From an uncultured Bacilli bacterium (GTDB taxonomy: Bacteria > Bacillota_I > Bacilli_A > RF39 > UBA660), in the NCBI GenBank assembly GCA_947594925.1, contig CANQEJ010000003.1:1-57931 (forward strand): a stretch of DNA of 57,931 nt, in the 5' to 3' direction. Position 1 is the stretch's first letter. The number at the start of each line of letters is the position of its first letter. Below, one piece after another: positions 1-31,371 of the stretch. The notes under the pieces were generated by a model. It did no database searches, was not told where the DNA came from, and was given only the letters and a program-made list of their open reading frames with translations. The translations under genes and the position numbers were made by a program.

Positions 1-69
1 ATTTTCATCAGTTCCTGGAGCTAATGTACAGCCGTCAGCGGCTTTAACGCCACCTACCATTAGTACCAT
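1..69 (-). CDS. 5' fragment (MVLMVGGVKAADGCTLAPGTDEN...) of a further copy of the repeated surface-protein family; continues past window start
   Basis: Begins with the same 29-nt box as the full copies. It lies 9 nt after, and in frame with, the TAA of the upstream copy. Confidence 0.5.
   Translation of the reverse strand, partial: MVLMVGGVKAADGCTLAPGTDEN
41..69 (-). repeat. 29-nt cassette-start box (minus-strand sense ATGGTACTAATGGTAGGTGGCGTTAAAGC)
   Basis: Identical string at 41-69, 1289-1317 and 5017-5045; truncated copy at 2553-2578. Confidence 0.9.
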
Positions 70-78
70 AGCTGCGGT

Positions 79-1317
79 TTAAAAAGTAATGAATAATCCA
101 GCAGCACTAGCAGTAACCATGCTGATTAAACTCATGAAATTATCAGAAGTTCCAGGGTTTTTAGCATCAGTAGTATTACCAGTAGGTTCTTGAGATTCTG
201 GAGCAGTAGTTTGTTCATTAGTATTTGTTTGACTACCTTCACCAACTACTTTATAACCATCTTTTGTTTCAATAGCTACTCCTGCTTTTACTAATTGTGT
301 TGATACGTCTACTGTTGCTCCGCTTTTAGCTTCTACAATAGCTACGATTTTATTTAAGTAAGAACCGCCTTCGATGATTCCTTGTAGATTAGCTATAACA
401 GCATTTTTATCTGCATTAAAGCAAGCATTGCTTAACCAAATAGCAGCATAGTCTCCAGCACTTTCTAGTGTACCGTCAACTAATGAATATTTAGCAGTAG
501 GGTTTAAAATAGCTAGAGCATATTTTGTTACTGATGCTACTCTACCTGAATTAATATTTAGTTTTGCTTTAGAAGTAGTATTGTTAGTTACAATAGTATC
601 TTCAGTAGTTGAAATTAATTCAGCACCATTTACATTTACCTCTGCATCATACATATCAACTGTTCTTTTAGTAGCAACTATTTTACCACCATTAAGATTT
701 AATACTAAACCATTTTTAGCAGTAAATGCTATATCAGAAGCAGTATATTCTCCACCAACAACATTAACAGTAGCAACATCAACACCATTAGTAGTTGCAG
801 ATGTTAAAATTGTTTTAGCAGAATATTTTCCATCTAGTGATACAATTGCCTTAGCACCTGCATCAATTACATTTTTTCCTGCAGCAGTAATTTCAGAAGC
901 AGATGTAATAGTTACGTTACCGTTAGTTCTAATTGCATTAGTTCCAGTGGAAGTTACTTTACCATTAACAATTAAGCTTCCGCCATCTTCTACTATGATA
1001 GCTTTAGTAAAGGTATAATTACCATTAAGTGTTAAAGTTGCACCATTTTTAACAGTTATATGATTTTTAAAGTCAATGCTTCCTTTATCACCTGTATTTA
1101 ATGTAACATCTTTTTCAATGTTATAAGTATTATTAACTGGTAAAGTTGTTTCAACAAGTTGATTGTAAGTACCTCCATCTGTTACAACTGAGACAAAACC
1201 AGCAGAAGCTGCACTGTATCCCTGACCATTAACTTCAGCAGCACAAGCATTTGCTTCACCTTGAGCAACTTCCAAATCACAAGTAGCTGCTTTAACGCCA
1301 CCTACCATTAGTACCAT
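79..1317 (-). CDS. Repeated beta-helix-like surface protein, copy 1 (C-terminal hydrophobic anchor)
   Basis: ORF 79..1353; ATG at 1317 gives MVLMVGGVKAATCD as in the other copies. Repetitive G-x-L-x-(L/V)-N-G / VNVVGG strands. C-terminus is ...AKNPGTSDNFMSLISMVTASAAGLFITF. No SD upstream. Confidence 0.6.
   Translation of the reverse strand: MVLMVGGVKAATCDLEVAQGEANACAAEVNGQGYSAASAGFVSVVTDGGTYNQLVETTLPVNNTYNIEKDVTLNTGDKGSIDFKNHITVKNGATLTLNGNYTFTKAIIVEDGGSLIVNGKVTSTGTNAIRTNGNVTITSASEITAAGKNVIDAGAKAIVSLDGKYSAKTILTSATTNGVDVATVNVVGGEYTASDIAFTAKNGLVLNLNGGKIVATKRTVDMYDAEVNVNGAELISTTEDTIVTNNTTSKAKLNINSGRVASVTKYALAILNPTAKYSLVDGTLESAGDYAAIWLSNACFNADKNAVIANLQGIIEGGSYLNKIVAIVEAKSGATVDVSTQLVKAGVAIETKDGYKVVGEGSQTNTNEQTTAPESQEPTGNTTDAKNPGTSDNFMSLISMVTASAAGLFITF
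85..405 (-). repeat. Conserved 3' block of cassette copy 1
   Basis: Near-identical by eye (a handful of substitutions) to 1331-1651 at a constant offset of 1246 nt. Its distal part also matches 3875-4110. Confidence 0.85.
1289..1317 (-). repeat. 29-nt cassette-start box
   Basis: Identical to 41-69 and 5017-5045. Confidence 0.9.
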
Positions 1318-2572
1318 AGCTGCATTTAAGAGTAATGAATAATCCAGCAGCACTAGCAGTAACCATGCTGATTAAACTCATGAAATTATCAGAAGTTCCA
1401 GGGTTTTTAGCATCAGCAGTATTACCAGTAGGTTCTTGAGATTCTGGAGCAGTAGTTTGTTCGTTAGTATTTGCTTGACTACCTTCACCAACTACTTTAT
1501 AGCCATCTTTTGTTTCGATAGCTACTCCTGCTTTTACTAATTGTGTTGATACGTCAATTGTTGCTCCATTTTCTGCTTCAATAGTTGCTACGATTTTATT
1601 TAAATAAGAACCGCCAGTAATAATACCTTGTAGATTAGCTATAACGGCATTTCCTTTACTATTTAAGCAAGTAGCAGTTTTTAACCAGATAGCTGCAGTT
1701 TGTTTAGGGCTCTCATAAGTTCCACCAGTTAAATTATATTTAGCATTTGCATTTCCAATTGCTAAAGCATATTTAGCATTTGATACTAATTTACTACCTT
1801 CATTAATTGTTAAGCTAGCTGTTGAAACAGTTCCATCAGCAAAGATAGCATCCATTGTATCACTAGTTAATTCAGAACCAGAAACAGTAACTTTTGCATC
1901 AGTCATTTTAACAACTTCTTTTGTAGCAGAAATTTTTCCACCATTAAGGTTTAAAATGACACCATTATCTGCCATAAACGCTATATCAGAAGCAGTATAG
2001 TCTCCACCAACAACATTTACAGTAGCAGCACCAGTAGCATTAACGATATTTTTACCAGTAAATGTACCATCTAATGAAATAACAGCATCTTTCTTAGCTT
2101 CAATAATAGCTGCTTGTGCACCTTTAACAGATGAATTAGTAATTGTTACGTTACCAGCAGCACTAATAGCAGGAGTTAATCCTAAAGATGAAACATTTAT
2201 ATCTACACCATTAAGAGTTAAACTTCCACCTTTTTGAACATCAAATAATGTTTTACTTGCAAGAGTAACTTCAGTTTTTCCATTAATAGTTAAACTAGCA
2301 CCATTTGCAACAGTAAGTACTTCATTTAATGTTAGAACACCATCACCAATAATATTGATGTTAATGTCTTTATCAAGAGTTCTTGCAGTAGTTATTTCTA
2401 ATGGATTAGCAATAACTAATTCTCCTCCATTAATTCTAGCTTCTTTCCAAGCATCTCCTGTACTATCAAAGTATTGAGTATTATTATTAACAGTAACTGT
2501 AGCTTTACAAGCACCATCTTCACCAAGTGGTAAGCTTGTGTCACAAGTAGCTGCTTTAACGCCACCTACCAT
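1292..2572 (-). CDS. Repeated beta-helix-like surface protein, copy 2 (first ATG of the box deleted; tail reads 26 nt into copy 1)
   Basis: ORF starts MVGGVKAATCD. The C-terminal block is near-identical to copy 1. It ends ...AAGLFITLKCSYGTNGRWR because the junction is 2 nt shorter than the copy 1/copy 0 junction. Confidence 0.6.
   Translation of the reverse strand: MVGGVKAATCDTSLPLGEDGACKATVTVNNNTQYFDSTGDAWKEARINGGELVIANPLEITTARTLDKDININIIGDGVLTLNEVLTVANGASLTINGKTEVTLASKTLFDVQKGGSLTLNGVDINVSSLGLTPAISAAGNVTITNSSVKGAQAAIIEAKKDAVISLDGTFTGKNIVNATGAATVNVVGGDYTASDIAFMADNGVILNLNGGKISATKEVVKMTDAKVTVSGSELTSDTMDAIFADGTVSTASLTINEGSKLVSNAKYALAIGNANAKYNLTGGTYESPKQTAAIWLKTATCLNSKGNAVIANLQGIITGGSYLNKIVATIEAENGATIDVSTQLVKAGVAIETKDGYKVVGEGSQANTNEQTTAPESQEPTGNTADAKNPGTSDNFMSLISMVTASAAGLFITLKCSYGTNGRWR
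1331..1651 (-). repeat. Conserved 3' block of cassette copy 2
   Basis: See 85-405. Confidence 0.85.
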
Positions 2573-2578
2573 TAGTAC
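2553..2578 (-). repeat. Cassette-start box, truncated (lacks the first ATG) at the edge of the HipA-like insertion
   Basis: Matches the box up to ...attagtac, then diverges at 2579. Confidence 0.85.
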
Positions 2579-2660
2579 TTTAATAACGATTTAGACGTTA
2601 TTATATAAAAAGACTTAAAAAAATGTTAAAATAATATATGAATAAAGGATATGATGTATT

Positions 2661-3854
2661 ATGAAATGTATTCTTATGAATAAAAATAAAGAAGTATTGG
2701 TCGCTGAGTATAATGAAACTTCAAAGTTTTTTGATAAGATATATGAAGTTAAGGATATTAATTATGCTCCCTATATTTTAAAAAGTTTTTATTTAAATGA
2801 TAATATTAATGATGTTTCTTTTAGAACTAATTTAAGCGAGTGGTTTAAAGGAAGGGGAATACCTTCCTGGCGTGATAAATTAGACTTATTATTACATCGA
2901 TTAAATATAACAGCACCTTATGAACTTCTAGATAAAGCTTTTGGCCTATCTTTATCTGACCAATATTGGCTAAAACCAGAAGGTAGCAATATTTCTTATG
3001 ATGATATTAATTTTTTTGATAACGATTTTGATTATTCAGAATTTATGGAAGCATCATTATCTATCAATAATAAAAGTATAACTAGTGATAAATCTTTAAA
3101 AACTCCTAATAATACAACGGATGGGATGTTAAGAAAAGCTTGGATTATTGAAAATAAAACAAGATATTTAATTAAAGGCGGATATAAAAATGATATATTA
3201 CAGCCTTTTAATGAAGTATTAGCTAGTGAGATATGTAAAAGATTAGGATTTGAACATGTCGAATATACTCTAGATACCTATAAAGATATGGTTGTATCTA
3301 AGTGTCCATGTTTTATAACTAAAAATACTGAATTTATTACTTGCTATCAAATAAGAAAAAATATGGAAAGGTATAATAATAATCAAGATTATGAAGAATA
3401 TGTAAAAGAATTAGAAAAAGAAGGTATAAAAAACGCGCGCGAAAAGTTGGAAAATATGTATATTCTAGATTTTCTTATTTTAAATGAAGATAGACATTTA
3501 AATAATTTTGGTATTATAAGAGATGTTAATACTTTAAAATGGTTAGATGTTGCTCCTATATTTGATAATGGTCAAAGTTTAAATATTCAGGATTATAGTG
3601 ATGAAGAAATTGTTATTAATAATCAGGGACGCCTTTTTTATGAAATTAAACCTTTTGATGAAATAATAAAAACAGTTAAAGATTTAAAAAGAATAAATAT
3701 ATCTAAATTGGATGGTATAGTGGTATGGTTTGATGATTTACTACATAAATATCAGTCTATTACAAATATATCTGATAGAAGAATTAATGGATTATGTCTT
3801 GTACTTAATCGGCAAATAAATAAATTAAAAGAATTAATTGATGTTGACAATTAA
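2661..3854 (+). CDS. HipA-like Ser/Thr kinase domain protein (orphan, no HipB-like partner seen)
   Basis: LNEDRHLNNFG (HipA-type D-x-H-x-x-N catalytic loop) and VAPIFDNGQSL (HipA-type aP-YD motif). N-terminal region ...SDQYWLKP... It is on the opposite strand to the surrounding cassette array. Confidence 0.6.
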   Translation: MKCILMNKNKEVLVAEYNETSKFFDKIYEVKDINYAPYILKSFYLNDNINDVSFRTNLSEWFKGRGIPSWRDKLDLLLHRLNITAPYELLDKAFGLSLSDQYWLKPEGSNISYDDINFFDNDFDYSEFMEASLSINNKSITSDKSLKTPNNTTDGMLRKAWIIENKTRYLIKGGYKNDILQPFNEVLASEICKRLGFEHVEYTLDTYKDMVVSKCPCFITKNTEFITCYQIRKNMERYNNNQDYEEYVKELEKEGIKNAREKLENMYILDFLILNEDRHLNNFGIIRDVNTLKWLDVAPIFDNGQSLNIQDYSDEEIVINNQGRLFYEIKPFDEIIKTVKDLKRINISKLDGIVVWFDDLLHKYQSITNISDRRINGLCLVLNRQINKLKELIDVDN

Positions 3855-3866
3855 TTCTTTTAATTT
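3822..3866. repeat. Perfect 18-bp inverted repeat with 9-nt loop at the right edge of the HipA-like cassette
   Basis: aaattaaaagaattaatt (3822-3839) / aattaattcttttaattt (3849-3866). It spans the stop of the HipA-like gene and the substituted tail of copy 3. Confidence 0.8.
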
Positions 3867-5051
3867 GAGATTAAGGTTTTTAGCATCAGCAGTATTACCA
3901 GTAGGTTCTTGAGATTCTGGAGCAGTAGTTTGTTCATTAGTATTTGTTTGACTACCTTCACCAACTACTTTATAACCATCTTTTGTTTCAATAGCTACTC
4001 CTGCTTTTACTAATTGTGTTGATACGTCAATAATAGCACCATTTTCTGCTTTGATTGCAGCAACAATTTCAGTTAAGTATGAACCACCACTAATGATACC
4101 TTGTAAGTTTTCAACGACAGCATCATCATCAATGCAATCTGTACTTAGTGAAATAGCAGCTTTTTGACTTGGACTTTCGTAAATTCCATCAGTTAAAGCG
4201 TATTTAGCTTCTGGATTTTGAATATCTAATGCATAACCTTTATCAGCAACTAATTTAGTACCAGCATTAATTGTTAAACTTGCTGTAGCAGCATTACCTA
4301 ATGTAGCAACAGTATTTCCTGTAGTTGAAGTTAATGTAGCATTACCAATAGTAACTTTAGCATCGTTCATTTCAACAGCTTCATTTCCTGCTTCAATGTT
4401 TCCACCTTGAATATCTAAAGTAGAACCATTATTAACTGTAAATGCTTCTGCTGTTGTAGTATAGTCACCACCAACTACAGTAACAGATGCTTTACCTGTA
4501 GTAGTAACGATACTTCTTCCTTCGAAGTCACCATCTAAAGATACATTAGCATCTTTAGCAGCTGTGATTAGTTCACCACCAACTTTGATATCTGAACCAG
4601 TAATAGTAACATTACCTTCAGTTTTAATGAAAGAACCAGCTACTGATGAGGCATTTAGTTCAACACCATTAAGTGTTAAACTACCACCTTTTTTAACGTC
4701 AAATAGAGTTGAACCAATACTAGTAGTAGCATCACTATTAATAGTTAAGCTTCCGCCTTTAGCAATAGTTAGAGCTGCACCAATTGCTAAACTTCCTTTT
4801 CCTTCAACAACGTTGATAGTTATATCTTTGTCGATAGTTCTAGCTTGGGCAATTCCAAAGTTTGTTGCAACAGTTAATTCTCCTCCATTATCTCTAGCTT
4901 CTTGCCAAGCATCATCCATATTATCGAAATATTGAGTGTTGCCATCTCTAACTACTGTAGCAGGACAAGCACCACTTGTACCTAATGCTTTATGAATATC
5001 GCAAGCAGGGTCAGCGGCTTTAACGCCACCTACCATTAGTACCATATTCAT
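3834..5051 (-). CDS. Repeated beta-helix-like surface protein, copy 3 (promoter-proximal; C-terminal anchor replaced by insertion-derived tail)
   Basis: Starts MNMVLMVGGVKAADPACD. It shares ...IDVSTQLVKAGVAIETKDGYKVVGEGSQTNTNEQTTAPESQEPTGNTADAKN, then diverges to LNLKLKELIVNIN where homology to the other copies stops (about 3874). Confidence 0.6.
   Translation of the reverse strand: MNMVLMVGGVKAADPACDIHKALGTSGACPATVVRDGNTQYFDNMDDAWQEARDNGGELTVATNFGIAQARTIDKDITINVVEGKGSLAIGAALTIAKGGSLTINSDATTSIGSTLFDVKKGGSLTLNGVELNASSVAGSFIKTEGNVTITGSDIKVGGELITAAKDANVSLDGDFEGRSIVTTTGKASVTVVGGDYTTTAEAFTVNNGSTLDIQGGNIEAGNEAVEMNDAKVTIGNATLTSTTGNTVATLGNAATASLTINAGTKLVADKGYALDIQNPEAKYALTDGIYESPSQKAAISLSTDCIDDDAVVENLQGIISGGSYLTEIVAAIKAENGAIIDVSTQLVKAGVAIETKDGYKVVGEGSQTNTNEQTTAPESQEPTGNTADAKNLNLKLKELIVNIN
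3875..4110 (-). repeat. Conserved 3' block of cassette copy 3 (truncated at 3875)
   Basis: ggtttttagcatcagcagtattaccagtaggttcttgagattctgg... matches copies 1 and 2. Homology begins abruptly at about 3875. Confidence 0.85.
5017..5045 (-). repeat. 29-nt cassette-start box
   Basis: Identical to 41-69 and 1289-1317; preceded here by an extra ATGAAT. Confidence 0.9.
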
Positions 5052-5081
5052 AATAAATTTAAGGGAAAATGGCGGAATATG

Positions 5082-5110
5082 TTGAAAAAAAAGAAAAATT
5101 TCGATATTAT
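5082..5110 (+). promoter_or_regulatory. Sigma-A-type promoter for the AMP-ligase/phosphorelay operon
   Basis: TTGAAA, 17 nt, TATTAT. Confidence 0.5.
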
Positions 5111-5163
5111 ATATGTAGAGAATAAGAAGCGGGCTATAAGATTTTGACGAAAGAGGAATTTTT

Positions 5164-6864
5164 ATGACGGAAACTAAATGGAACGAAAGATATAATAAAG
5201 AGAGGTTTCAAAATTTTAATGTCCACGAGACTTTATATAATACTTATAGAAATGCAAGCTTATTATCACCAGAAAAAATAGCAATTTATGATACAAGAAG
5301 AGAAAAAGCATATACAAACAATGAACTTTTAGCAATGATTGATAAAGCTAGTGCGGGACTTAAAGCTTTAGGAGTAAATAGTAATTCGCGTATTGGTTGT
5401 ATGATTGAAAATACGGTTGAAGAAGCTGTTACGTTATTAAGTGCTAATAAATTGGGCGCTTTGGTAAGATGTTTAGATTTTACTAAGGGAGTTGAACCAT
5501 TAAAATATAATATTGATGAGTGTGATTTTAATTTATTAGTTATTGACCATCATTATATAGAATATGAACCTTTTGTAAATACGAAAAAATTGCCGGTATT
5601 GGTTATTGGTGATAAGATGTCTCATAATTATATTAAGTATGATGAACTATATAATTATGGTAATGGGCAAGATATAGAGGCAATGCCATATGTTGATAAA
5701 AGGCCTGCTGTTATTATTAACAGTAGTGGAACTACTGGAGCGGCGAAACCTATTGTTCACTCTAATTCCACAGTTAATTCAGCAGCATTAAAATTAGCTC
5801 GTACTGATTATCCTTTAGGAAATAATAATGTTATTGAAAATATAGTTCCCCCTCATATTGGTTTAGGAATTATAACTTCGTTATATAGTGGTTTAGTAAC
5901 TGGAACCCAAGTAGCGCAGATTAAAGATTTTTATAATAGTAAATTACTTGTTGAAAATATGATTAAATTTACTAAAGAATTTAATGAATTTGCCAAGAAA
6001 CACGATTTAGGTGATGACGCTTTACTATTATTATTTTCAACCCCATTATTCTTACGTTTCTTACTAACAAATCCATCTGTAACTGATTTAACTCGTGTAG
6101 GTTGTATGATAGCAGCTGGTTCTAAATTATACAAAAATGACCAATTAGAGTTAGAAAAAATCGCCCGTGAAAAAGGATGTGATATCCCTATATGTGCGGC
6201 GTATGGAACTAATGAAAACTGTGGGGGTATAACTTATAATCACATCAATAATTATAAATATAATAGTGCAGGAATTGTAGCATATGAAACAGAAGTAAAA
6301 ATTATTGATTCTAAAACGCATGAAATAAAAGGAGTTAATGAAGAAGGTAAGATAATAACTAAAAGTGCTAGTAATTTCTTAGGATATTTTAATAAACCAG
6401 AATTAACTAAAGATGCTATTATTACCCTTCCTGATGGTAGTAAGTGGTTTGATACTAAAGATTTAGGTTATATGGACGAAGATGGTTATTTATTTGTAAC
6501 TGGTCGGGAAAAGAGAATTATTATTCGTTTTGATTTTAAGATTTCTTTAGATGCTGTAGAAGAGAAGTTAAAAAGTTTACCATTTATTGATAATGCTGCA
6601 ACTATTGTTAAAGAATCTGGAACTTCATTAGAAGAATTTGTGGCTTTTGTAATACCAAATGAGTTATTTGAAGGAGATTTAAAACAGAAGATTGTGGATA
6701 CGAAAATTGTGTCTTCTCTAGAAATGCCAAATGAATATGTTATTGTCGATGAAATTCCATTTATGACTAATGGTAAAGTTGATTATCAAAAGTTAACAGA
6801 AATGTATAAAAATGATAAAAAATTAGTTAGAGTTAAACAAGATATTAGTTCATTTGACTTTTAA
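5164..6864 (+). CDS. AMP-binding (adenylate-forming) enzyme, acyl-CoA synthetase/ligase family
   Basis: SSGTTGAAKPIVHS (A3), AAYGTNE (A5), DLGYMDEDGYLFVTGREKRIII (A7/A8), TNGKVDYQKL (A10). SD agagga. Confidence 0.85.
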   Translation: MTETKWNERYNKERFQNFNVHETLYNTYRNASLLSPEKIAIYDTRREKAYTNNELLAMIDKASAGLKALGVNSNSRIGCMIENTVEEAVTLLSANKLGALVRCLDFTKGVEPLKYNIDECDFNLLVIDHHYIEYEPFVNTKKLPVLVIGDKMSHNYIKYDELYNYGNGQDIEAMPYVDKRPAVIINSSGTTGAAKPIVHSNSTVNSAALKLARTDYPLGNNNVIENIVPPHIGLGIITSLYSGLVTGTQVAQIKDFYNSKLLVENMIKFTKEFNEFAKKHDLGDDALLLLFSTPLFLRFLLTNPSVTDLTRVGCMIAAGSKLYKNDQLELEKIAREKGCDIPICAAYGTNENCGGITYNHINNYKYNSAGIVAYETEVKIIDSKTHEIKGVNEEGKIITKSASNFLGYFNKPELTKDAIITLPDGSKWFDTKDLGYMDEDGYLFVTGREKRIIIRFDFKISLDAVEEKLKSLPFIDNAATIVKESGTSLEEFVAFVIPNELFEGDLKQKIVDTKIVSSLEMPNEYVIVDEIPFMTNGKVDYQKLTEMYKNDKKLVRVKQDISSFDF

Positions 6865-6889: not shown

Positions 6890-8731
6890 ATGTTGGTAGT
6901 TATTCAGTTATCTGTATTAATTACATCATTAGTATATTTATCTATAATAGCAATTTCTTTCTTTTGTAGGGAAAAAATAAATAGTGTGGATACGCGAATT
7001 TATAAAAATATTGTTATAACAAATATTATTTCTATTTGTGTTGAAATGTTTTTATATTTATTAACATTTACGATATTAGAATTTAATCCGGGTTTTGTGT
7101 TATTAGTGAGTAAGATTTTTGTTAGTTTGGTTTTACTCTGGTTTGTATTCTTAATGAAATATGCTATGGCTTTATGTTTTAAAATAAAGTTTTCTGAAGA
7201 AGAAATTAGAAAGAAGAAACATCATCTTTCTCTTCAAATTAATTTAGTTGCTTTTATCGCTTGTTTAGTAATTATTTGTTTACCACTAGAAATGGTAGGA
7301 GATAAAAGTAGTGGTTTTTATGCAAGTGGTATTGCCACGAAAGCAGCTTTTATGTTAATTATGACTACATGTGTTATTATTTTCTATAATTTAATTCGCA
7401 ATTTTAAGAAATTAAATTATCGGGAATTTACACCTTTAATTTTGCTTTTGGTTTTAGTATCTATTTCAACTGTAGTACAAATTATGTTTCCGCAATTATT
7501 GTTATTTAATCCGGTAATGTCTTTAATTACTGTTATTATGTATCATACGATTGAAAATCCTGATGTTAAGATGATTAAAGAATTAAATATTGCGAAAGAT
7601 GTGGCTTTAAAAGCTAATAATGCAAAGACAGAATTTTTAAGTAGTATGTCTCATGAAGTAAGAACACCTTTAAATGCCATTGTGGGCTTTTCAGAAAGTT
7701 TAAAAGAAGAAGATTTAAACCCTAAAGCTAAAGAAGAAGTTGATGATATTATTAGTGCTTCCGAAACTTTATTGGAAATTGTTAATGGTATTTTGGATAT
7801 ATCTAAAATTGAAGCTAATAAATTAGAGATAGTAAATAGTGAATATGATACCCAAAAGCTATTTAAAGAACTAGCTAATTTAACTAAAGTTAGAATAGGG
7901 GAAAAACCCATTGTTTTAAAGGTCAATATTGATGAAAGCCTACCAAAGGTATTATATGGCGACTACGCTCGTTTAAAACAAATTGTCTTAAATTTATTAA
8001 CTAATGCTGCTAAGTATACTGATAAAGGGGAAATTAATTTTACAGTTAATTCGGTTATAACTAAAAATGTTTGTCGTTTAATTATTTCCGTTAAAGATAC
8101 AGGGCGTGGTATTAAGAAAGAAAATATTAGTAAGCTATTTACGAAGTTTGAAAGATTAGACGAAAAGAATACTACTATTGAAGGAACTGGCTTAGGTCTT
8201 GCTATTACGAAAAAATTAGTGGAATTAATGCATGGTAATATTGTAGTTGATAGTGTTTATGGTAAGGGTTCTAAGTTTACAGTTTCTATAGACCAATTAG
8301 TTGTTAAAAAACCAACTATTACGCAAGTTGTTGAAGAAGAAAAAGTGGAAGTAAATAATTTTGCTGGTAAGAAGGTTTTAATTGTCGATGATAATGAACT
8401 TAATTTAAAAGTGGCAGCGCGTCTTTTACAACCATATAAAATGGATATTGATAAATCTAGTAGTGGTGATGATGCAATCAGTAAAATTATTGATGATAAT
8501 GTATATGATTTGATTTTATTAGATGATATGATGCCTCATAAAAGCGGAAGTGAAACTTTAGCTGAATTAAAACAAATAGAGGGCTTTAATATGCCGGTGG
8601 TTGTTTTAACAGCTAATGCAATTGAAGGTATGAAAGAACAATATCTAAAAGCGGGATTTGATGATTATTTAGCAAAACCTATTTCTAAGGAAGAATTAAA
8701 AAGAGTTTTACAAAAGTATTTAAATAAATAA
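6890..8731 (+). CDS. Hybrid sensor histidine kinase (multi-TM N-terminus, HisKA, HATPase_c, C-terminal receiver)
   Basis: H-box SHEVRTPLNAIVGF; N/G boxes LLTNAAKYT, DTGRGI, GTGLGLAITKKLV; receiver VLIVDDNELN...LILLDDMMP...LTANA...KPI. Confidence 0.9.
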   Translation: MLVVIQLSVLITSLVYLSIIAISFFCREKINSVDTRIYKNIVITNIISICVEMFLYLLTFTILEFNPGFVLLVSKIFVSLVLLWFVFLMKYAMALCFKIKFSEEEIRKKKHHLSLQINLVAFIACLVIICLPLEMVGDKSSGFYASGIATKAAFMLIMTTCVIIFYNLIRNFKKLNYREFTPLILLLVLVSISTVVQIMFPQLLLFNPVMSLITVIMYHTIENPDVKMIKELNIAKDVALKANNAKTEFLSSMSHEVRTPLNAIVGFSESLKEEDLNPKAKEEVDDIISASETLLEIVNGILDISKIEANKLEIVNSEYDTQKLFKELANLTKVRIGEKPIVLKVNIDESLPKVLYGDYARLKQIVLNLLTNAAKYTDKGEINFTVNSVITKNVCRLIISVKDTGRGIKKENISKLFTKFERLDEKNTTIEGTGLGLAITKKLVELMHGNIVVDSVYGKGSKFTVSIDQLVVKKPTITQVVEEEKVEVNNFAGKKVLIVDDNELNLKVAARLLQPYKMDIDKSSSGDDAISKIIDDNVYDLILLDDMMPHKSGSETLAELKQIEGFNMPVVVLTANAIEGMKEQYLKAGFDDYLAKPISKEELKRVLQKYLNK

Positions 8732-8780
8732 TCACTTTCAAAAATTAGTGTTATAATAGAACTAAGAGAGTAGGATATGT

Positions 8781-9551
8781 ATGAGAGATATTAAATTATT
8801 AACGGAAAATGGTGTTGATGTTAAAGCGAGCTTAGAGTTATTTGGAGAAATGGATATGTATGATGCCACTTTAAATGATTTTTTAGAGGGAGTTAATGCT
8901 AAACTTACCCGTTTAAAAAATTATAAAGATGTAGGTGATATGCCTAATTATGCAATTGAAGTTCACTCTTTAAAAAGTGATGCGCGTTATTTAGGATTTA
9001 CTACTTTAGCTCAAATGGCTTATGACCATGAACTTAAAAGTAAAGAAGGAAATAAATTCTTTGTAGTTCAAAATTATGATGCTTTAATTGAAGAGACTAA
9101 TAAGATGATAGATTTAGCTAAAAAATATTTAGAAGGCGCTGTTTTTGAAAGTAAGGATAGTACAAATTCTGATTCTAATGAGAAATCTATTTTAGTAGTT
9201 GATGACTCTGATTTAATTCAAAAGTTTATTAATAAAATATTCCATGAAGATTATAATGTTATTGTAGCAAGTGATGGCCAACAAGCTATTGATACAATTA
9301 AAAACCAAACTGGTGGAAAAATAGTAGCTATGTTATTAGATTTAAATATGCCTAAAGTAGATGGCTTTGAAGTTTTGGAATATTTTAAAGAAAATGATTT
9401 ATTTAAAAGCTTACCAGTTTCTATAATTACAGGTGATGATTCCAAAGAACGAATTGATAAAGCTTTTAAATATCCCATTGTGGATATGATAGTTAAACCT
9501 TTTAATGAAAGTAATATTAAAAGAGTAATAGAAAAAACAATAGGTAAATAA
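8781..9551 (+). CDS. Hpt domain fused to a stand-alone receiver domain (no output domain)
   Basis: Hpt motif EVHSLKSDARYLGF; receiver ILVVDDSDL...MLLDLNMPKVDG...IITGDDS...KPF. Confidence 0.8.
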   Translation: MRDIKLLTENGVDVKASLELFGEMDMYDATLNDFLEGVNAKLTRLKNYKDVGDMPNYAIEVHSLKSDARYLGFTTLAQMAYDHELKSKEGNKFFVVQNYDALIEETNKMIDLAKKYLEGAVFESKDSTNSDSNEKSILVVDDSDLIQKFINKIFHEDYNVIVASDGQQAIDTIKNQTGGKIVAMLLDLNMPKVDGFEVLEYFKENDLFKSLPVSIITGDDSKERIDKAFKYPIVDMIVKPFNESNIKRVIEKTIGK

Positions 9552-11805: not shown

Positions 11806-11822
11806 TAATTTAGGTGATAAAA

Positions 11823-13019
11823 ATGATAAAAAGAGAAACTTATTTATCTAAAATACGAGAATTTTATGATATAGATATAATTAAAATTATTACGGGAATT
11901 AGAAGATGTGGTAAGTCTACATTATTACTACAAATAATTGATGAATTAAAAGAAAATAATATTAATGATAAGCATATTATTTATATTAATTTTGAAGATG
12001 TAGAATTTTCTTTTATAAAAAATTATTTAGATTTAAATAAATATATTAAAGATAAAATTAAAGATAAAGGAAAATATTACCTTTTATTTGATGAAGTCCA
12101 AATGGTTGATGAGTGGGAACGAGCAATTAATTCATTTAAATCAACTTTAAATGTTTCAATATTTGTAACTGGTTCTAATTCTAAACTTTTATCTTCTGAG
12201 TTAGCTACGCTTTTATCAGGTAGATATGTTACTTTTAAAATTGCCCCATTTAGTTTTAAAGAAGTTGTGGAATATAAGGAAATTAAAGATAAAGGTGAAA
12301 TAGAAGAAGCATTTAATGATTACTTATTATGGGGAGGTATGCCCCAAAGGTTTGTCTTTACTACCATAGAAGGTATTCAAACTTATTTAAAAGATGTTTT
12401 TAATTCTATAGTATTAAAAGATATTATAAAAAGAAACTCTATAAAAAATGTAACATTATTTGAAAAAGTTATGGAATATTTAGCCTCTAATCTAAATCAA
12501 ACATTTTCACCAACTAATATGATGAGTGCTTTTGAAATAGAGAAAATTCCAGTTTCTTCCAAAACAATTTATGATTGTTTGAACTATGCTGAGGAAGCTT
12601 TATTAATGTCTAAAGTTTCTACTTATGATATTAGAGGCAAAAGGATACTGTCGCGTAAAGATAAATATTATTTAACAGATTTAGGATTAGGACAAATTTT
12701 AAATATAAACAAAAAAACACAGTATGGTGCTTATTTAGAAAATATTGTTTTTAATGAGCTTGTTTTTCGAGGATATAATGTAAGTGTTGGTAATAATAAT
12801 GGTCAAGAAATAGATTTTATTGCTACTAAACATAATCAAAAAGAGTATTATCAAGTTGCCTTTACTCTTTCTAATGAAGAAACAGAAGAAAGAGAATTTG
12901 GAGCCTTTGCTAATATTCAAGATAATTATCCTAAATATGTTATATCAACAGATAAATTAGATTATTCTCAAAATGGTATAATTCATAAAAATATTATAGA
13001 TTGGTTATTAGAAAAATAA
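11823..13019 (+). CDS. AAA-family ATPase (COG1373-like, AAA_14 + DUF4143-type architecture)
   Basis: Walker A GIRRCGKSTLL and Walker B YLLFDEVQ, about 400 aa. ATG 11823 follows SD AGGTGA. Confidence 0.7.
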   Translation: MIKRETYLSKIREFYDIDIIKIITGIRRCGKSTLLLQIIDELKENNINDKHIIYINFEDVEFSFIKNYLDLNKYIKDKIKDKGKYYLLFDEVQMVDEWERAINSFKSTLNVSIFVTGSNSKLLSSELATLLSGRYVTFKIAPFSFKEVVEYKEIKDKGEIEEAFNDYLLWGGMPQRFVFTTIEGIQTYLKDVFNSIVLKDIIKRNSIKNVTLFEKVMEYLASNLNQTFSPTNMMSAFEIEKIPVSSKTIYDCLNYAEEALLMSKVSTYDIRGKRILSRKDKYYLTDLGLGQILNINKKTQYGAYLENIVFNELVFRGYNVSVGNNNGQEIDFIATKHNQKEYYQVAFTLSNEETEEREFGAFANIQDNYPKYVISTDKLDYSQNGIIHKNIIDWLLEK

Positions 13020-20877: not shown

Positions 20878-21000
20878 AAATTTGTAAAAACGAAGTTACC
20901 ATAGACAGTAGGGGCGTAAGCTTAATCATCCTACCGAGGAAAACTTATTTTAGACGCAGTGTTTAAATTTTTAAGCTTTCCTTGTTATGGGAAAGTTTTT
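20878..21000 (+). promoter_or_regulatory. L10 (rplJ) leader with terminator-like attenuator hairpin
   Basis: GTAGG...CCTAC pairing, then aagctttcc/gggaaagtt hairpin plus T-run (20973-21000). The position matches the known L10(L12)4 leader of Bacillota. Confidence 0.55.
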
Positions 21001-21020
21001 AAATATATAAAGGAGGATAT

Positions 21021-29138: not shown

Positions 29139-29236
29139 TAAGTTATAAACGTGTAAACGTTTATATAAATAATAAAAGATAAAGAGTAAACTATAGCCTT
29201 CGTTATAAGTATTCCTTAACTCTTTATCTTTTTAAT

Positions 29237-29626
29237 TTAAAAGTTTTTTTCAGAATAACTGTGTGAATAATTGATACGTTCATCAAATTCAACATAATTT
29301 AAGTAAATCATTAATAATAAATACCAATTGCCTGTGGTTGGGTCACTTAATATTAAGTGGTCGCGGCCGGCTTCTTCAACTATACCGGTAAATATTTTAT
29401 CTTTCCACTCATTAGAATCTGGAAAAGAGAAATAAGCTTTTACTCTTTTGCCTTTGTTTAGCCTTAAAATGTTTTCGATATAACTTTGTTCCATGGGCAG
29501 GCTAGTATTTTGACTTATTGATTCTATGTTGGCTTGATAATTATTAGGAATTGGATTTTGATTTGTAGTTATGTTAGGATTTGTAGCCGTTGGAAATGTC
29601 GGATTTTGATAGAAATTTCCGTTCAT
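29237..29626 (-). CDS. gerQ: Spore coat protein GerQ-like
   Basis: N/Q/P-rich N-terminus, then SYIENILRLNKGKRVKAYFSF...EWKDKIFTGIVEEAGRDHLILSDPTTGNWYLLLMIYLNYVEFDE. Confidence 0.75.
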   Translation of the reverse strand: MNGNFYQNPTFPTATNPNITTNQNPIPNNYQANIESISQNTSLPMEQSYIENILRLNKGKRVKAYFSFPDSNEWKDKIFTGIVEEAGRDHLILSDPTTGNWYLLLMIYLNYVEFDERINYSHSYSEKNF

Positions 29627-29698
29627 TTTTAAATATCACCTCTTGATAATTTATATGCAAATAAAAAATAATATAGTATAATTATTTATGGTGATAGT

Positions 29699-30598
29699 AT
29701 GTTTTTTAACGCAAATAAGATTATTGAAATTGTTAAAGAAAAAAATCGAATACCTAGAATATTAGTTCTTATTTTTGGTACATTTTTGTTAGGACTTGCT
29801 TATAATATGTATTTAAAAACTAATAATTTAGTTACAGGTGGTGTTACTGGTCTTTCGATTATTTTGCAAAGATTACTTAATATTGATGCTAATTTCTTTA
29901 TTTATATTTTAACTTTTGGCATATTAATAGTTAGTTTTTTCACTTTAGGAACGAAGGAAACTTTGAAGAGTTCTTTGGGTGCTATTTTATATCCCTTTAT
30001 GGTTAGTATAACTTCGCCTTTATGTGATTTTCTACATGATAAGTTTATTTTGGATAGTATGTTTGTGGAAGTATTAGTAGCGAGCTTGATTTTAGGATTT
30101 GCAAGTGGCATTATTTATAAAGTAGGATATTCAACTGGTGGTAATGATACGATTGTGCAGATTATTAACAAGTATGCCAAAATTCCAATGGGAAAAGCTA
30201 TTTTTATTACTAATTTAATTATTATTTTATTAGGTGGGGCGATATTTGGAATTAATAATGTAGTTTATGCTATTATTATTGTTTATATTGAAAGTACAGT
30301 TGTTGATAAAATTCTTTTAGGTATTTCTGAAAGTAAACAGTTTTTTATTCATACCAAAGAGTTGAGTAAGGTTAGAGAGTTAATTATTGATAAGTTAAAT
30401 ACCGGGGTTACAGTTATTGAAACAACGGGAGGATTTACGCATAAGAAGAATAAGATGTTAATGTGTGTTGTTGCGACGAAAGATTATTATTTATTTAAAG
30501 AGGCAGTATTGGAAATTGACCCGGAAGCTTTCTTTGTTATTAATGATTGTTATGAAGTTTCAGGAGGAGTTAAGAGAGACCCTTTAATCTTTATCTAG
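29699..30598 (+). CDS. YitT-family membrane protein (DUF2179 C-terminal domain)
   Basis: Multi-TM N-terminus with GGVTG / STGGND, and a soluble C-terminus TVIETTGGFT...AFFVINDCYEV. Confidence 0.75.
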   Translation: MFFNANKIIEIVKEKNRIPRILVLIFGTFLLGLAYNMYLKTNNLVTGGVTGLSIILQRLLNIDANFFIYILTFGILIVSFFTLGTKETLKSSLGAILYPFMVSITSPLCDFLHDKFILDSMFVEVLVASLILGFASGIIYKVGYSTGGNDTIVQIINKYAKIPMGKAIFITNLIIILLGGAIFGINNVVYAIIIVYIESTVVDKILLGISESKQFFIHTKELSKVRELIIDKLNTGVTVIETTGGFTHKKNKMLMCVVATKDYYLFKEAVLEIDPEAFFVINDCYEVSGGVKRDPLIFI

Positions 30599-30607
30599 GA
30601 ATTCTAT

Positions 30608-30637
30608 AATTTACCATTTAATAAATGGTAAATTTTT
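30608..30637 (+). terminator. Rho-independent terminator after the yitT-like gene
   Basis: aatttaccattta / taaatggtaaatt palindrome followed by T-run. Confidence 0.6.
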
Positions 30638-30669
30638 GTTATAATGAGGATAATAAGTAGGTGGTAAAA

Positions 30670-31371
30670 GTGAAGTTCATAAAAATACAGGACTGCTATA
30701 AAGTATATAAAAATGGTGTTACTGCTACTGCAGGTTTAAATTTAGAGATTAGTAAAGGGGAATTTGTTTTTATAATTGGTGCAACTGGTTGTGGAAAATC
30801 TACTTTAATAAAGATGTTATATCGTGAAGAAAAACCCACTAAAGGTAAAGTAATTGTGGGAGGAATAGATGTTGCTAAATTACGTAATGGTAAAGTTTAT
30901 AAGTTAAGAAGAAAGTTAGGGATAGTTTTCCAAGACTTTAAACTATTACCTAAATTAACAGTTTATGAAAATGTGGCCTTTCCTTTAAATAGTATGGGAC
31001 TTAAAAAAAGTGAAGTTAAACCAAGAGTTATTAAAGCTTTAGAACTTGTTGGTTTGAAGGAAAAGATTAGAAGTTATCCCAAAGAGTTATCAGCTGGTAT
31101 GCAACAACGTGTATGTATAGCAAGAGCAATGGTTAATAGTCCTAAGCTATTAATATGTGATGAACCAACCGGAAATTTAGACCCTGAGACTTCTAAGGAA
31201 ATAATGAACGTATTAGATGGAATTAATAAAGAACTTGGTACCACTATTGTCATGGTTACTCATGATAAAGATATCGTAAATAGGATGAAGAAAAGAGTTA
31301 TTATGTTGGAAAATGGGGTCTTGATTAGTGACGAATTGAAAGGAAAGTATAAAGCACATGAAGGCGTTTAG
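30670..31371 (+). CDS. ftsE: Cell-division ABC ATPase FtsE
   Basis: GATGCGKSTLIKM, LSAGMQQRVCIARA, LLICDEPTGNLD. GTG 30670 follows the taggtgg SD (the track start is 30661). Confidence 0.9.
   Translation: MKFIKIQDCYKVYKNGVTATAGLNLEISKGEFVFIIGATGCGKSTLIKMLYREEKPTKGKVIVGGIDVAKLRNGKVYKLRRKLGIVFQDFKLLPKLTVYENVAFPLNSMGLKKSEVKPRVIKALELVGLKEKIRSYPKELSAGMQQRVCIARAMVNSPKLLICDEPTGNLDPETSKEIMNVLDGINKELGTTIVMVTHDKDIVNRMKKRVIMLENGVLISDELKGKYKAHEGV

Follow-up and report, generated by a model that had tools for sequence, protein, structure and literature searches.

A head-to-tail array of 5'-truncated sortase-substrate genes in an uncultured Bacilli bacterium as a possible silent archive for gene conversion

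Why would a bacterium maintain a row of open surface-protein genes that carry neither a ribosome-binding site nor a complete signal peptide? The question is raised by the left end of a 57,931-nucleotide (nt) stretch of DNA from an uncultured Bacilli bacterium (GenBank assembly GCA_947594925.1, contig CANQEJ010000003.1), referred to here as the window, where four co-oriented minus-strand copies of one gene family lie head to tail, the last of them (copy 0) being cut by the contig edge. The window represents one entire contig of a draft assembly, and the order of the cassettes across its repeats of approximately 300 nt may be unreliable. We put at about an even chance the interpretation that the copies are silent, promoterless cassettes, archived as donors in the gene conversion of an expression gene linked to a sortase. 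This interpretation draws on the architecture of the array, the missing expression signals, the complete srtB-linked genes found in relatives, the common flanks around unrelated protein bodies, the concerted evolution of those flanks and the constraint acting on the frames.

The layout of the array was largely as had been proposed from the sequence in an earlier, model-made description (the original prediction). The 29-nt string ATGGTACTAATGGTAGGTGGCGTTAAAGC occurs exactly on the minus strand at 41-69, 1289-1317 and 5017-5045 and with two mismatches at 2553-2581, no occurrence in the window being expected by chance, and together with the open reading frames (ORFs) these positions bear out the presence of four co-oriented copies, one of them cut by the edge. 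An identical opening had been claimed for every copy, and this holds for copies 0, 1 and 3; in copy 2 the box reads AAAGTACTAATGG, its first ATG having mutated to AAA and leaving only MVGGVKAA. Likewise, the closing block of about 300 nt ascribed to each copy is present in copies 1 and 2 (79-378 versus 1325-1624, 92% identical) but is missing from copy 3, where homology stops at about 3875. The C-terminus of copy 3 is thus cut ahead of the NPxTS motif (..DAKN at approximately 3875, then LNLKLKELIVNIN and a stop), the sorting signal and the last ~95 nt being gone, and homology to other cassettes picks up again at 3875. The predicted spacing was found at two junctions, as the copy 1 stop (79-81) lies 9 nt ahead of the copy 0 ATG (67-69) and copies 2 and 1 have 26 nt in common (1292-1317), the former ending there in a different frame (tail ..ITLKCSYGTNGRWR and a stop), but copies 3 and 2 lie 1.29 kb apart, with a plus-strand HipA_C-like ORF between them that the original prediction had passed over. 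The copy 1/copy 0 junction has no Shine-Dalgarno (SD) sequence and no charged tail past the membrane segment. Alignment also substantiated the predicted mosaicism of the centres, the N-terminal half of copy 2 resembling copy 3 and its C-terminal half copy 1.

The suggestion that each N-terminus is the distal half of a signal peptide was confirmed by full-length homologues (proteins and loci of relatives are designated here by P and L numbers, respectively). Complete homologues carry MKKTLMSIVLGAAAMVLMVGGVKAA and specify the full signal peptide MKKTLMSIVLGAAAMVLMVGGVKA, cleaved ahead of an A, the coding sequence of which starts with MKKTLMSIVLGAA; the box corresponds to its distal half. Five relatives (P0002, P0005, P0007, P0011 and P0016) open with MKKTLMSIV(L/F)G(A/V)(A/L)AMVLM(V/I)GG(V/A)KA-A, and the homology of the box to the signal-peptide coding DNA of the complete L022 gene spans 37 nt rather than 29, at 94.6% identity (41-77 and 1287-1323). 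Complete relatives have 24 residues with a KK n-region, of which neither the basic n-region nor the initial half of the h-region is present in the box, the window copies retaining just MVLMVGGVKA or MVGGVKA and thus no full N-terminal Sec signal peptide. The body of copy 0 begins ..VKAADGCTLAPGTDEN, identical to that of P0002, a protein with a full signal peptide and a window-type 3' block.

Signals for translation and transcription are equally wanting. As predicted, none of the copies has an SD sequence, the anti-SD duplex energies of the window copies being -0.8 to +2.0 kcal/mol as compared to -6 to -15.7 kcal/mol for most genuine ATG starts in the window. The stretch upstream of copy 3 (5052-5163) contains no SD for this copy and has no similarity to the promoter/SD region of complete genes, and no terminator-like sites were found inside the array. 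A scan for promoter-like sites was uninformative in this AT-rich DNA, with 27 sites found as compared to 27.5 in shuffled sequence. The best sigma-70-like match, TTAACA-18-TATAAT (11/12), lies on the minus strand at 2629-2600 between the HipA-like gene and copy 2 and faces the latter; transcription of copies 2 to 0 from this site is conceivable, but matches of its kind occur at chance frequency. Three candidate starts or leaders were set aside. The copy 1 ORF extends to 1353 if an upstream start is counted (79-1317/1353), but the resulting N-terminal extension from GTG 1353 (MLLDYSLLLNAAMVLMVGG..) lacks an SD and is unconserved, and stops occur in the corresponding frames at other junctions. 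Reading the 'ATGAAT' of copy 3 as the remnant of a start codon after a 36-nt in-frame deletion is arithmetically feasible, but the upstream DNA bears no trace of a promoter or SD and the resemblance is probably a coincidence. Finally, VKAATC is off the lipobox pattern and not conserved among copies.

These findings bear on the alternative offered in the original prediction, namely that the copies are ordinary tandem paralogues expressed in place by translational coupling. Here a single message would be translated by termination-reinitiation or by SD-independent starts at the box ATG, and MVLMVGGVKA would serve as a minimal export signal. The absence of terminators within the array, the proximity of stops and starts (the 9-nt gap, the 26-nt overlap, and TAATG stop-start overlaps at L001-1417 and L005-2976), the open and constrained frames and the 11/12 promoter-like site just upstream of copy 2 would all suit such a scheme. 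However, no SD is present even though most genes of the genome have one, and the putative leader lacks a basic n-region and contains no more than about 8 hydrophobic residues; copy 2 and all arrays of species 1 open at MVGGVKAA or TTG, and L009 and L016 lack even that. Complete relatives retain the 24-residue signal peptide, so that the missing half is evidently needed, and in-place products would be devoid of an export signal. In addition, junction lengths are random with respect to frame, the opposite-strand HipA-like gene breaks co-transcription from the array head, and promoter-like sites are no more numerous than in shuffled sequence. Expression in place is consequently disfavoured, and we regard it as distinctly improbable.

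A promoter, an SD and a basic n-region ahead of one of the copies were named in the original prediction as what would mark an expression site. Copies of this kind are present in related genomes beside a class B sortase gene. The relatives are rabbit-gut ('Lapin') metagenome-assembled genomes (MAGs) labelled uncultured Bacilli or Clostridia; among GTDB representative genomes only five loci were found, all in rabbit-gut MAGs, and the Joint Genome Institute (JGI) metagenomes yielded no relatives. A complete gene stands divergent from a sortase gene in L003, L012, L015, L017 and L022/L023, with four lineages represented by L003, L012, L017 and L022, and the adjoining sortase belongs to class B (TIGR03064; 164 and 150 bits, cutoff 153.75). 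Complete genes have a sigma-A-type promoter (TTGACA-17-TATAAT/TATACT), an AAAGGAG SD, a full MKKTLMSIV.. signal peptide and a terminator hairpin past the stop, the promoter, SD and full signal peptide being documented in L003, L012, L015 and L022. The 57.9-kb window itself contains no sortase gene by tblastn with two srtB proteins. With regard to the host organisms, elongation factor G (EF-G) of the window is at most 84-85% identical to that of any named relative, all of these being 'Bacilli bacterium' MAGs, and the GerQ-YitT-ABC stretch at 29236-31022 is 82% identical to L001 14366-16154, which indicates that the organisms are related at about genus level. The L001 array lies ~8 kb upstream of GerQ-YitT-ABC beside a DHH-family gene, where the window has its str-operon region, so the location of the array differs.

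The 3' end of the cassettes provides the second common element. The 3' block encodes a linker, an NP(G/N/D)TSDN motif and a hydrophobic segment, to which the complete genes add a FKKxxL(G/S) tail ahead of the stop, and judged from these sequences the motif, hydrophobic segment and tail together constitute a sortase sorting signal. Copies 1 and 2 possess NPGTSDN and the hydrophobic segment; copy 1 is without the basic tail, and in copy 2 the tail is out of frame. Conserved N-terminal cysteine pairs and the sorting signal imply that the proteins are destined for the extracellular side, which the truncated starts cannot reach. In alignments, identity is 93-100% over the last ~215-250 nt of the copies, synonymous sites included, and drops sharply to 45-85% in the bodies, while the 3' block is only ~78-80% identical to that of other lineages. 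Near-identity within the genome combined with divergence between lineages indicates, at the level of sequence, that the flanks evolve in concert.

Between these conserved flanks, arrays mix unrelated bodies. Type A is a predicted beta-helix of ~400 amino acids and type B (P0015, P0016) comprises ~270-340 amino acids, and apart from the box (10/10 residues) and the ~50 residues at the C-terminal end the two have nothing in common. Each type is found in arrays (L005) as well as at srtB-linked sites (type A in L003, type B in L012 and L017), and the type B body archived in L005 corresponds to the expressed-type gene in L012, with a ratio of nonsynonymous to synonymous substitution rates (dN/dS) of 0.20. 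Searches of Pfam, NCBIfam and PDB sequences returned no named family for either type, and only 16 close relatives were retrieved in a search of 5.8 billion proteins. The beta-helix body proposed originally is in line with an AlphaFold (AF2) model of copy 1 (predicted local distance difference test score, pLDDT, 84; predicted template modelling score, pTM, 0.81), in which residues ~10-360 form a predicted all-beta solenoid and the linker and sorting signal are disordered. Its best Foldseek neighbours in PDB, AlgE4, phage tailspikes, the pneumococcal adhesin PfbA and tapirin, are all right-handed beta-helices, though the matches are weak (E >= 0.03, template modelling (TM) score <= 0.36). Chlamydial Pmp-like repeats (GGA[ILV] / FxxN), for which a search had been suggested originally, were not recovered, there being no Pmp family among the Pfam matches even at E <= 1. 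A profile search of 1.84 billion representatives gave 5547 relatives, among them giant multi-repeat proteins and ~430-amino-acid beta-helix proteins with MKNLK.. signal peptides and sorting signals of the form NPQTYDG or VPKTNDN plus a basic tail, and the type A body probably belongs to this broad, uncharacterised class of wall-anchored beta-helix proteins.

The design of the window array recurs in independent assemblies (Table 1), the non-redundant loci comprising 5 complete genes and ~21 truncated copies, the latter in arrays or solitary. At the junctions of the relatives, the 3' block (..GLFIAFKK) is followed by a few bases and then by (T)TGGTCCTAATGGTAGG.. (LVLMVGGVKAA), and the spacer from GCTTTC to ATGG measures 16, 19, 20, 20, 21 or 22 nt. 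Only one in six is in frame, others ending in ..NGRWR or ..FWS and a stop, and such frame-random lengths imply that the junctions behave as unconstrained non-coding spacers. This argues against a polyprotein, in which the membrane segment of the upstream copy, KK and the distal half of the signal peptide would form a hairpin of stop-transfer followed by start-transfer with VKA-A as signal-peptidase site, several sortase substrates would be cut from one precursor and A/T runs at the junctions would set the frames through slippage or recoding. In L005 the junction at position 92 is indeed in frame and stop-free (..AAGLFIAFKKDFLVLMVGGVKAA..), the window copy 1/copy 0 junction is in frame but for one TAA, and A6 and T5 runs do occur in junctions; on the other hand, a common slippery motif or stimulatory structure is absent, the window junctions have no KK loop and the insertion of other genes at junctions is tolerated. 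The polyprotein, with or without recoding, was set aside on account of the frame-random junction lengths and the lack of a common slippery motif, and we consider it very unlikely. The in-frame L005 junction (within 17-898, ..AAGLFIAFKKDFLVLMVGGVKAAVDYTK..) joins an upstream sorting signal to the next cassette via a membrane segment, KK and a signal-like hairpin.

The frames themselves are maintained. Every one of the ~21 truncated copies has an open frame of 266-464 codons in DNA of ~29% GC, and the other reading frames of the same window DNA contain 118-150 stops. Two orthologous truncated pairs gave dN/dS values of 0.20 and 0.34 (binomial p 3e-5 and 7e-7), and for one truncated pair the probability of encountering no stop under neutrality was ~0.02. 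Open frames and low dN/dS imply that the truncated copies are kept as protein-coding sequence despite having no signals for translation or export. These data are pertinent to the strongest rival explanation, according to which the array arose as a by-product of evolution: the tail of one gene would have been fused illegitimately, and once only, to the middle of the next gene's signal peptide, unequal crossing-over would have expanded the array, and the copies would be relics that decay and are unused for variation. Consistent with this, solitary truncated copies break the signal peptide at various points, from ILGAAAMVLM.. down to GGAKA, the 3' ends of window copy 3, L011, L009 and L013 are damaged, toxin genes and IS200-like genes have inserted at junctions, null forms without promoter and signal peptide exist even at the srtB site, and junctions drift by insertions and deletions. 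Decay is difficult to reconcile, however, with frames that are open in all ~21 copies, with dN/dS values significantly under neutral and with the persistence of arrays in two or more lineages that share ~82% identity in their housekeeping DNA, and we therefore judge the by-product explanation unlikely, albeit the least so of the rivals.

It may also be asked whether the array exists at all, or whether repeats belonging to dispersed paralogues or to a mixture of strains collapsed during assembly. The window, as a draft contig, ends in a repeat, the ~300-nt 3' block exceeds the length of a short read and related contigs all break at these repeats. Nevertheless, the joins between 3' block and truncated box span less than one read or k-mer, the junctions recur across independent samples and assemblies (L001 and L002, L013 and L014, L005 and L006), and the 3' blocks can be resolved by the few single-nucleotide polymorphisms (SNPs) in which they differ. 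Doubt is confined to the order of the cassettes and does not extend to the head-to-tail truncated design; we give an assembly artefact very little probability. Between the 5' limit of homology to the complete signal-peptide sequence and the end of the window contig lie exactly 77 nt, and in L004 and L007, two loci of a single sample, the common signal-peptide sequence likewise measures exactly 77 nt, beyond which the bodies diverge. Edges of 77 nt are what we would expect of a k=77 assembly-graph merge where several paths meet at the box, and such k-mer-sized overlaps imply assemblies that branch at the box, making the copy number and order seen in them provisional. This branching fits a duplicated and converted cassette and equally fits strain mixtures, and is treated as a hint only.

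The interpretation of the array as a silent archive would accommodate the observations as follows. The cassettes would encode variable sortase-anchored surface proteins, with promoter, SD and first signal-peptide half provided only at the sortase-linked gene. Cassettes and expression gene would share two arms, a 5' box of 29-47 nt and a 3' block of 150-300 nt (linker plus sorting signal), between which homologous, RecA-type, non-reciprocal recombination would copy all or some of a cassette body into the expressed gene; strand invasion would most likely begin in the 3' block, the longer of the two, with resolution in the shorter 5' box. The exposed body, of type A or type B, would thus change while the parts for export and anchoring stay fixed, and box-to-box deletion would offer a second route if the expressed gene heads an array. 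Cassette transfer itself, its direction and its machinery belong to what we infer, indirect hints being the match between copy 0 and P0002, the type B body in L005 versus L012 and the assembly graphs that branch just past the signal peptide. Toxin or toxin-antitoxin genes at the junctions may, speculatively and by analogy, stabilise these direct-repeat arrays by guarding them from box-to-box deletions, toxin-antitoxin cassettes being thought to stabilise superintegrons against deletion in the same way. The fuller proposal, that walled, spore-forming gut Bacilli practise true recombinational antigenic variation of sortase-anchored proteins from two-type archives guarded by junction toxin-antitoxin genes, is advanced tentatively, its chances being in our opinion a little short of even.

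A number of observations weigh against silent cassettes feeding an expression site. All related data are short-read metagenome assemblies at ~2-9x coverage, and in these neither a switching event nor a chimera nor within-clone heterogeneity was seen. The 5' homology is short (29-47 nt), and positions 1-5400 yielded neither a recombinase nor an inverted repeat or any further cis element. The window genome's own complete gene is known only as protein P0002, a sortase search gave no match from its 18,684-nt contig and the C-terminus of P0002 (..LFITS and a stop) is of the array type instead of FKKxxLx; this tail would follow from a 1-nt variant of the copy 2/copy 1 junction, in which case the expressed gene may head an array. 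Similar 'CxLAPG..NTC' bodies occupy srtB-linked sites in three lineages (P0002, by analogy with L022 only, L022 and P0007), a recurrence that looks like vertical inheritance over rapid turnover. In species 2, no cassette arrays were seen, and L018 contains a 2445-nt duplication (3218-5661 and 7084-9527, 99.76% identical) of a sortase and substrate gene, the duplicate units being parted by an AAA_14 gene and forming two srtB-substrate units in tandem. This species also has a widespread null form, in which promoter, SD and signal-peptide start are replaced by ~130 unrelated nt. Two tandem units, some without promoter and signal peptide, and no array make for a picture less tidy than one site plus one archive.

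Other switch types were also considered. Inverted repeats of at least 25 nt are absent from 1-5400, leaving no sign there of a site-specific inversion switch or shufflon, and an invertible promoter was rejected as the ~130-nt replacement in L016, L018, L020 and L021 is not the reverse complement of the promoter module (by inspection in the case of L016). P0005 and P0007 had been taken for alleles of one expression site, prompted by the 100% identity of L015 nt 1-227 to L003, and this was dropped after L018 showed two tandem units with a 2445-nt duplication; the remaining alleles are unit-B forms only, namely P0007, the ADTVV body and the null form.

Several gene types accompany the cassettes (Table 1). 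Toxin-type genes are situated exactly at cassette junctions, namely the HipA_C-like kinase gene of the window (2661-3854, plus strand), next to which no adjoining antitoxin ORF was seen, RelB-YafQ in L001 (4153-4739) and L005 (1011-1603), and Fic in L013 (2360-3076). AAA_14/DUF4143 ATPase genes stand beside family genes in L003 (11598-12788), L005 (4045-5250), L011 (100-1305) and L018 (5682-6872), and a paralogue is located in the window at 11814-13019 (plus strand), 7 kb from the array (Pfam E 4e-37 and 8e-18). IS200-like Y1 transposase genes were found beside cassettes or at junctions in L011 (2990-3364), L012 (11045-11541, split in two) and L013 (207-584; PF01797, E 7.5e-28). An Rfam search gave no match in the array region, the sole match in the window being a ribosomal protein L10 leader (RF00557, 75.7 bits) at 20881-21010 on the plus strand, upstream of an rplJ-like ORF.

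Table 1. Coordinates of the array features in the window and of corresponding features in related assemblies
Feature	Position	Strand	Description
Copy 0	1-77	-	Cut by contig end; 37-nt signal-peptide box (41-77) plus first 40 nt of body (..VKAADGCTLAPGTDEN)
Copy 1/copy 0 junction	70-81	-	TAA stop 79-81 plus 9-nt spacer 70-78; in the frame of copy 0
Copy 1	79-1317	-	412-codon 5'-truncated cassette with type A (predicted beta-helix) body; starts MVLMVGGVKAA, ends ..NPGTSDNFMSLISMVTASAAGLFITF and stop
Copy 1 3' homology block	79-378	-	End of body, linker, NPGTSDN sorting motif, hydrophobic segment
Copy 1 37-nt box	1287-1323	-	GCAGCTATGGTACTAATGGTAGGTGGCGTTAAAGCAG; overlapped by out-of-frame tail of copy 2 (..ITLKCSYGTNGRWR and stop)
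Copy 2	1292-2581	-	5'-truncated cassette; ORF 1292-2572 opening MVGGVKAA (2572); 3' block 1325-1624
Inserted segment	2582-3874		1.29 kb; takes the place of the end of copy 3 (~95 nt), the junction and 3 nt at the start of the copy 2 box
HipA_C-like kinase ORF	2661-3854	+	397 amino acids; PF07804, E 1e-8, 35.5 bits versus cutoff 30.5; weak AGGA SD
Copy 3	3834-5051	-	Array head in the contig; starts MNMVLMVGGVKAA; box 5017-5045; family sequence 3875-5046
Intergenic stretch upstream of copy 3	5052-5163		Common to divergent acyl-CoA-ligase-like gene at 5164
Arrays of the same head-to-tail design in independent assemblies	L001/L002; L005; L006; L013/L014		L001/L002, at least 4 copies; L005, 3 copies plus end of a fourth
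Null form (four samples)	L016 55-185; L018 4440-4676 and 8305-8541; L020; L021		..KGGAKA-DTVV.. without start codon

If real, the proposed archive would be the first of its kind to serve cell-wall-anchored proteins, and it would operate in a commensal rather than a pathogen, extending the principle to the peptidoglycan-anchored Gram-positive surface and to gut commensals, where secretory immunoglobulin A (IgA) and phages are the likely selective agents. The proposed locus design is concrete and testable, with an expression gene linked to srtB and homology arms of 37 nt on the 5' side and ~300 nt on the 3' side, and because every related contig breaks in these repeats, loci of this kind are invisible in short-read MAGs. 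Should the array instead consist of decaying paralogues, it would still be a clear case, of modest interest, of concerted evolution and of toxin genes lodging in repeat arrays.

The complete relatives resemble SrtB substrates of the Bacillota (NPxTx-type) in their Sec signal peptide, NPxTSDN motif, hydrophobic segment, KK tail and adjacent srtB gene. The SrtB loci described to date each consist of one operon, for example the isd genes of haem uptake, and we know of no archives of truncated SrtB substrates; the full-text literature that was searched contained no paper linking sortases with silent cassettes and no description of a promoterless archive of wall-anchored proteins in Gram-positive bacteria. 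Silent-cassette surface variation is known in spirochaetes, Neisseria, mycoplasmas, Anaplasma and Treponema, where it concerns lipoproteins, pilins and outer-membrane proteins, and to our knowledge all such systems belong to pathogens. The principle is therefore established, and it is the setting that appears to be undescribed, comprising class B sortase substrates, a walled spore-forming gut commensal, cassettes of nearly whole genes and toxin genes at the junctions.

Among these systems, the pilS loci of Neisseria consist of silent head-to-tail copies that lack a promoter and the 5' leader region and have 3' sequence in common with pilE, to which sequence is transferred in a RecA-dependent, non-reciprocal fashion. 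The array described here is similar in its 5'-truncated head-to-tail silent copies and conserved 3' sequence, but the Neisseria system varies a type IV pilin in a Gram-negative organism through segmental mini-cassette transfers and needs a G-quadruplex (G4)-forming element near pilE. Mycoplasma synoviae, the mycoplasmas being placed in the GTDB class Bacilli, has one complete vlhA gene and a large tandem array of 5'-truncated vlhA pseudogenes, and the combination of a promoter-bearing complete gene with a tandem 5'-truncated archive is again comparable; vlhA differs in encoding a lipoprotein haemagglutinin of a wall-less organism, without sortase anchoring and without any sequence relationship to the present family. 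The vls locus of Borrelia burgdorferi is a contiguous array of promoterless, open-frame cassettes between conserved sequence (PMC11499132, PMC2632889); its cassettes represent the central part of a gene and are ~90% identical to vlsE, whereas those of the present array are nearly whole genes with 45-85% mutual identity. The closest layout is that of the vmp genes of Borrelia hermsii, which are silent, promoterless and essentially full-length and are flanked by an upstream homology sequence (UHS) of 61-62 bp, of which 26 bp are coding, and a downstream homology sequence (DHS) of 214 bp, the non-homologous Vlp and Vsp families using one expression site interchangeably (PMC6011951). In the present system, a box of 29-47 nt, a 3' block of 150-300 nt and the unrelated body types A and B take the place of these elements. 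The vmp genes differ in that they encode lipoproteins of a diderm spirochaete, reside on linear plasmids, have an extragenic DHS and have been shown experimentally to switch; the cassettes described here, by contrast, encode class B sortase substrates of walled gut Bacilli, abut one another and carry a coding 3' arm, and their switching is inferred only.

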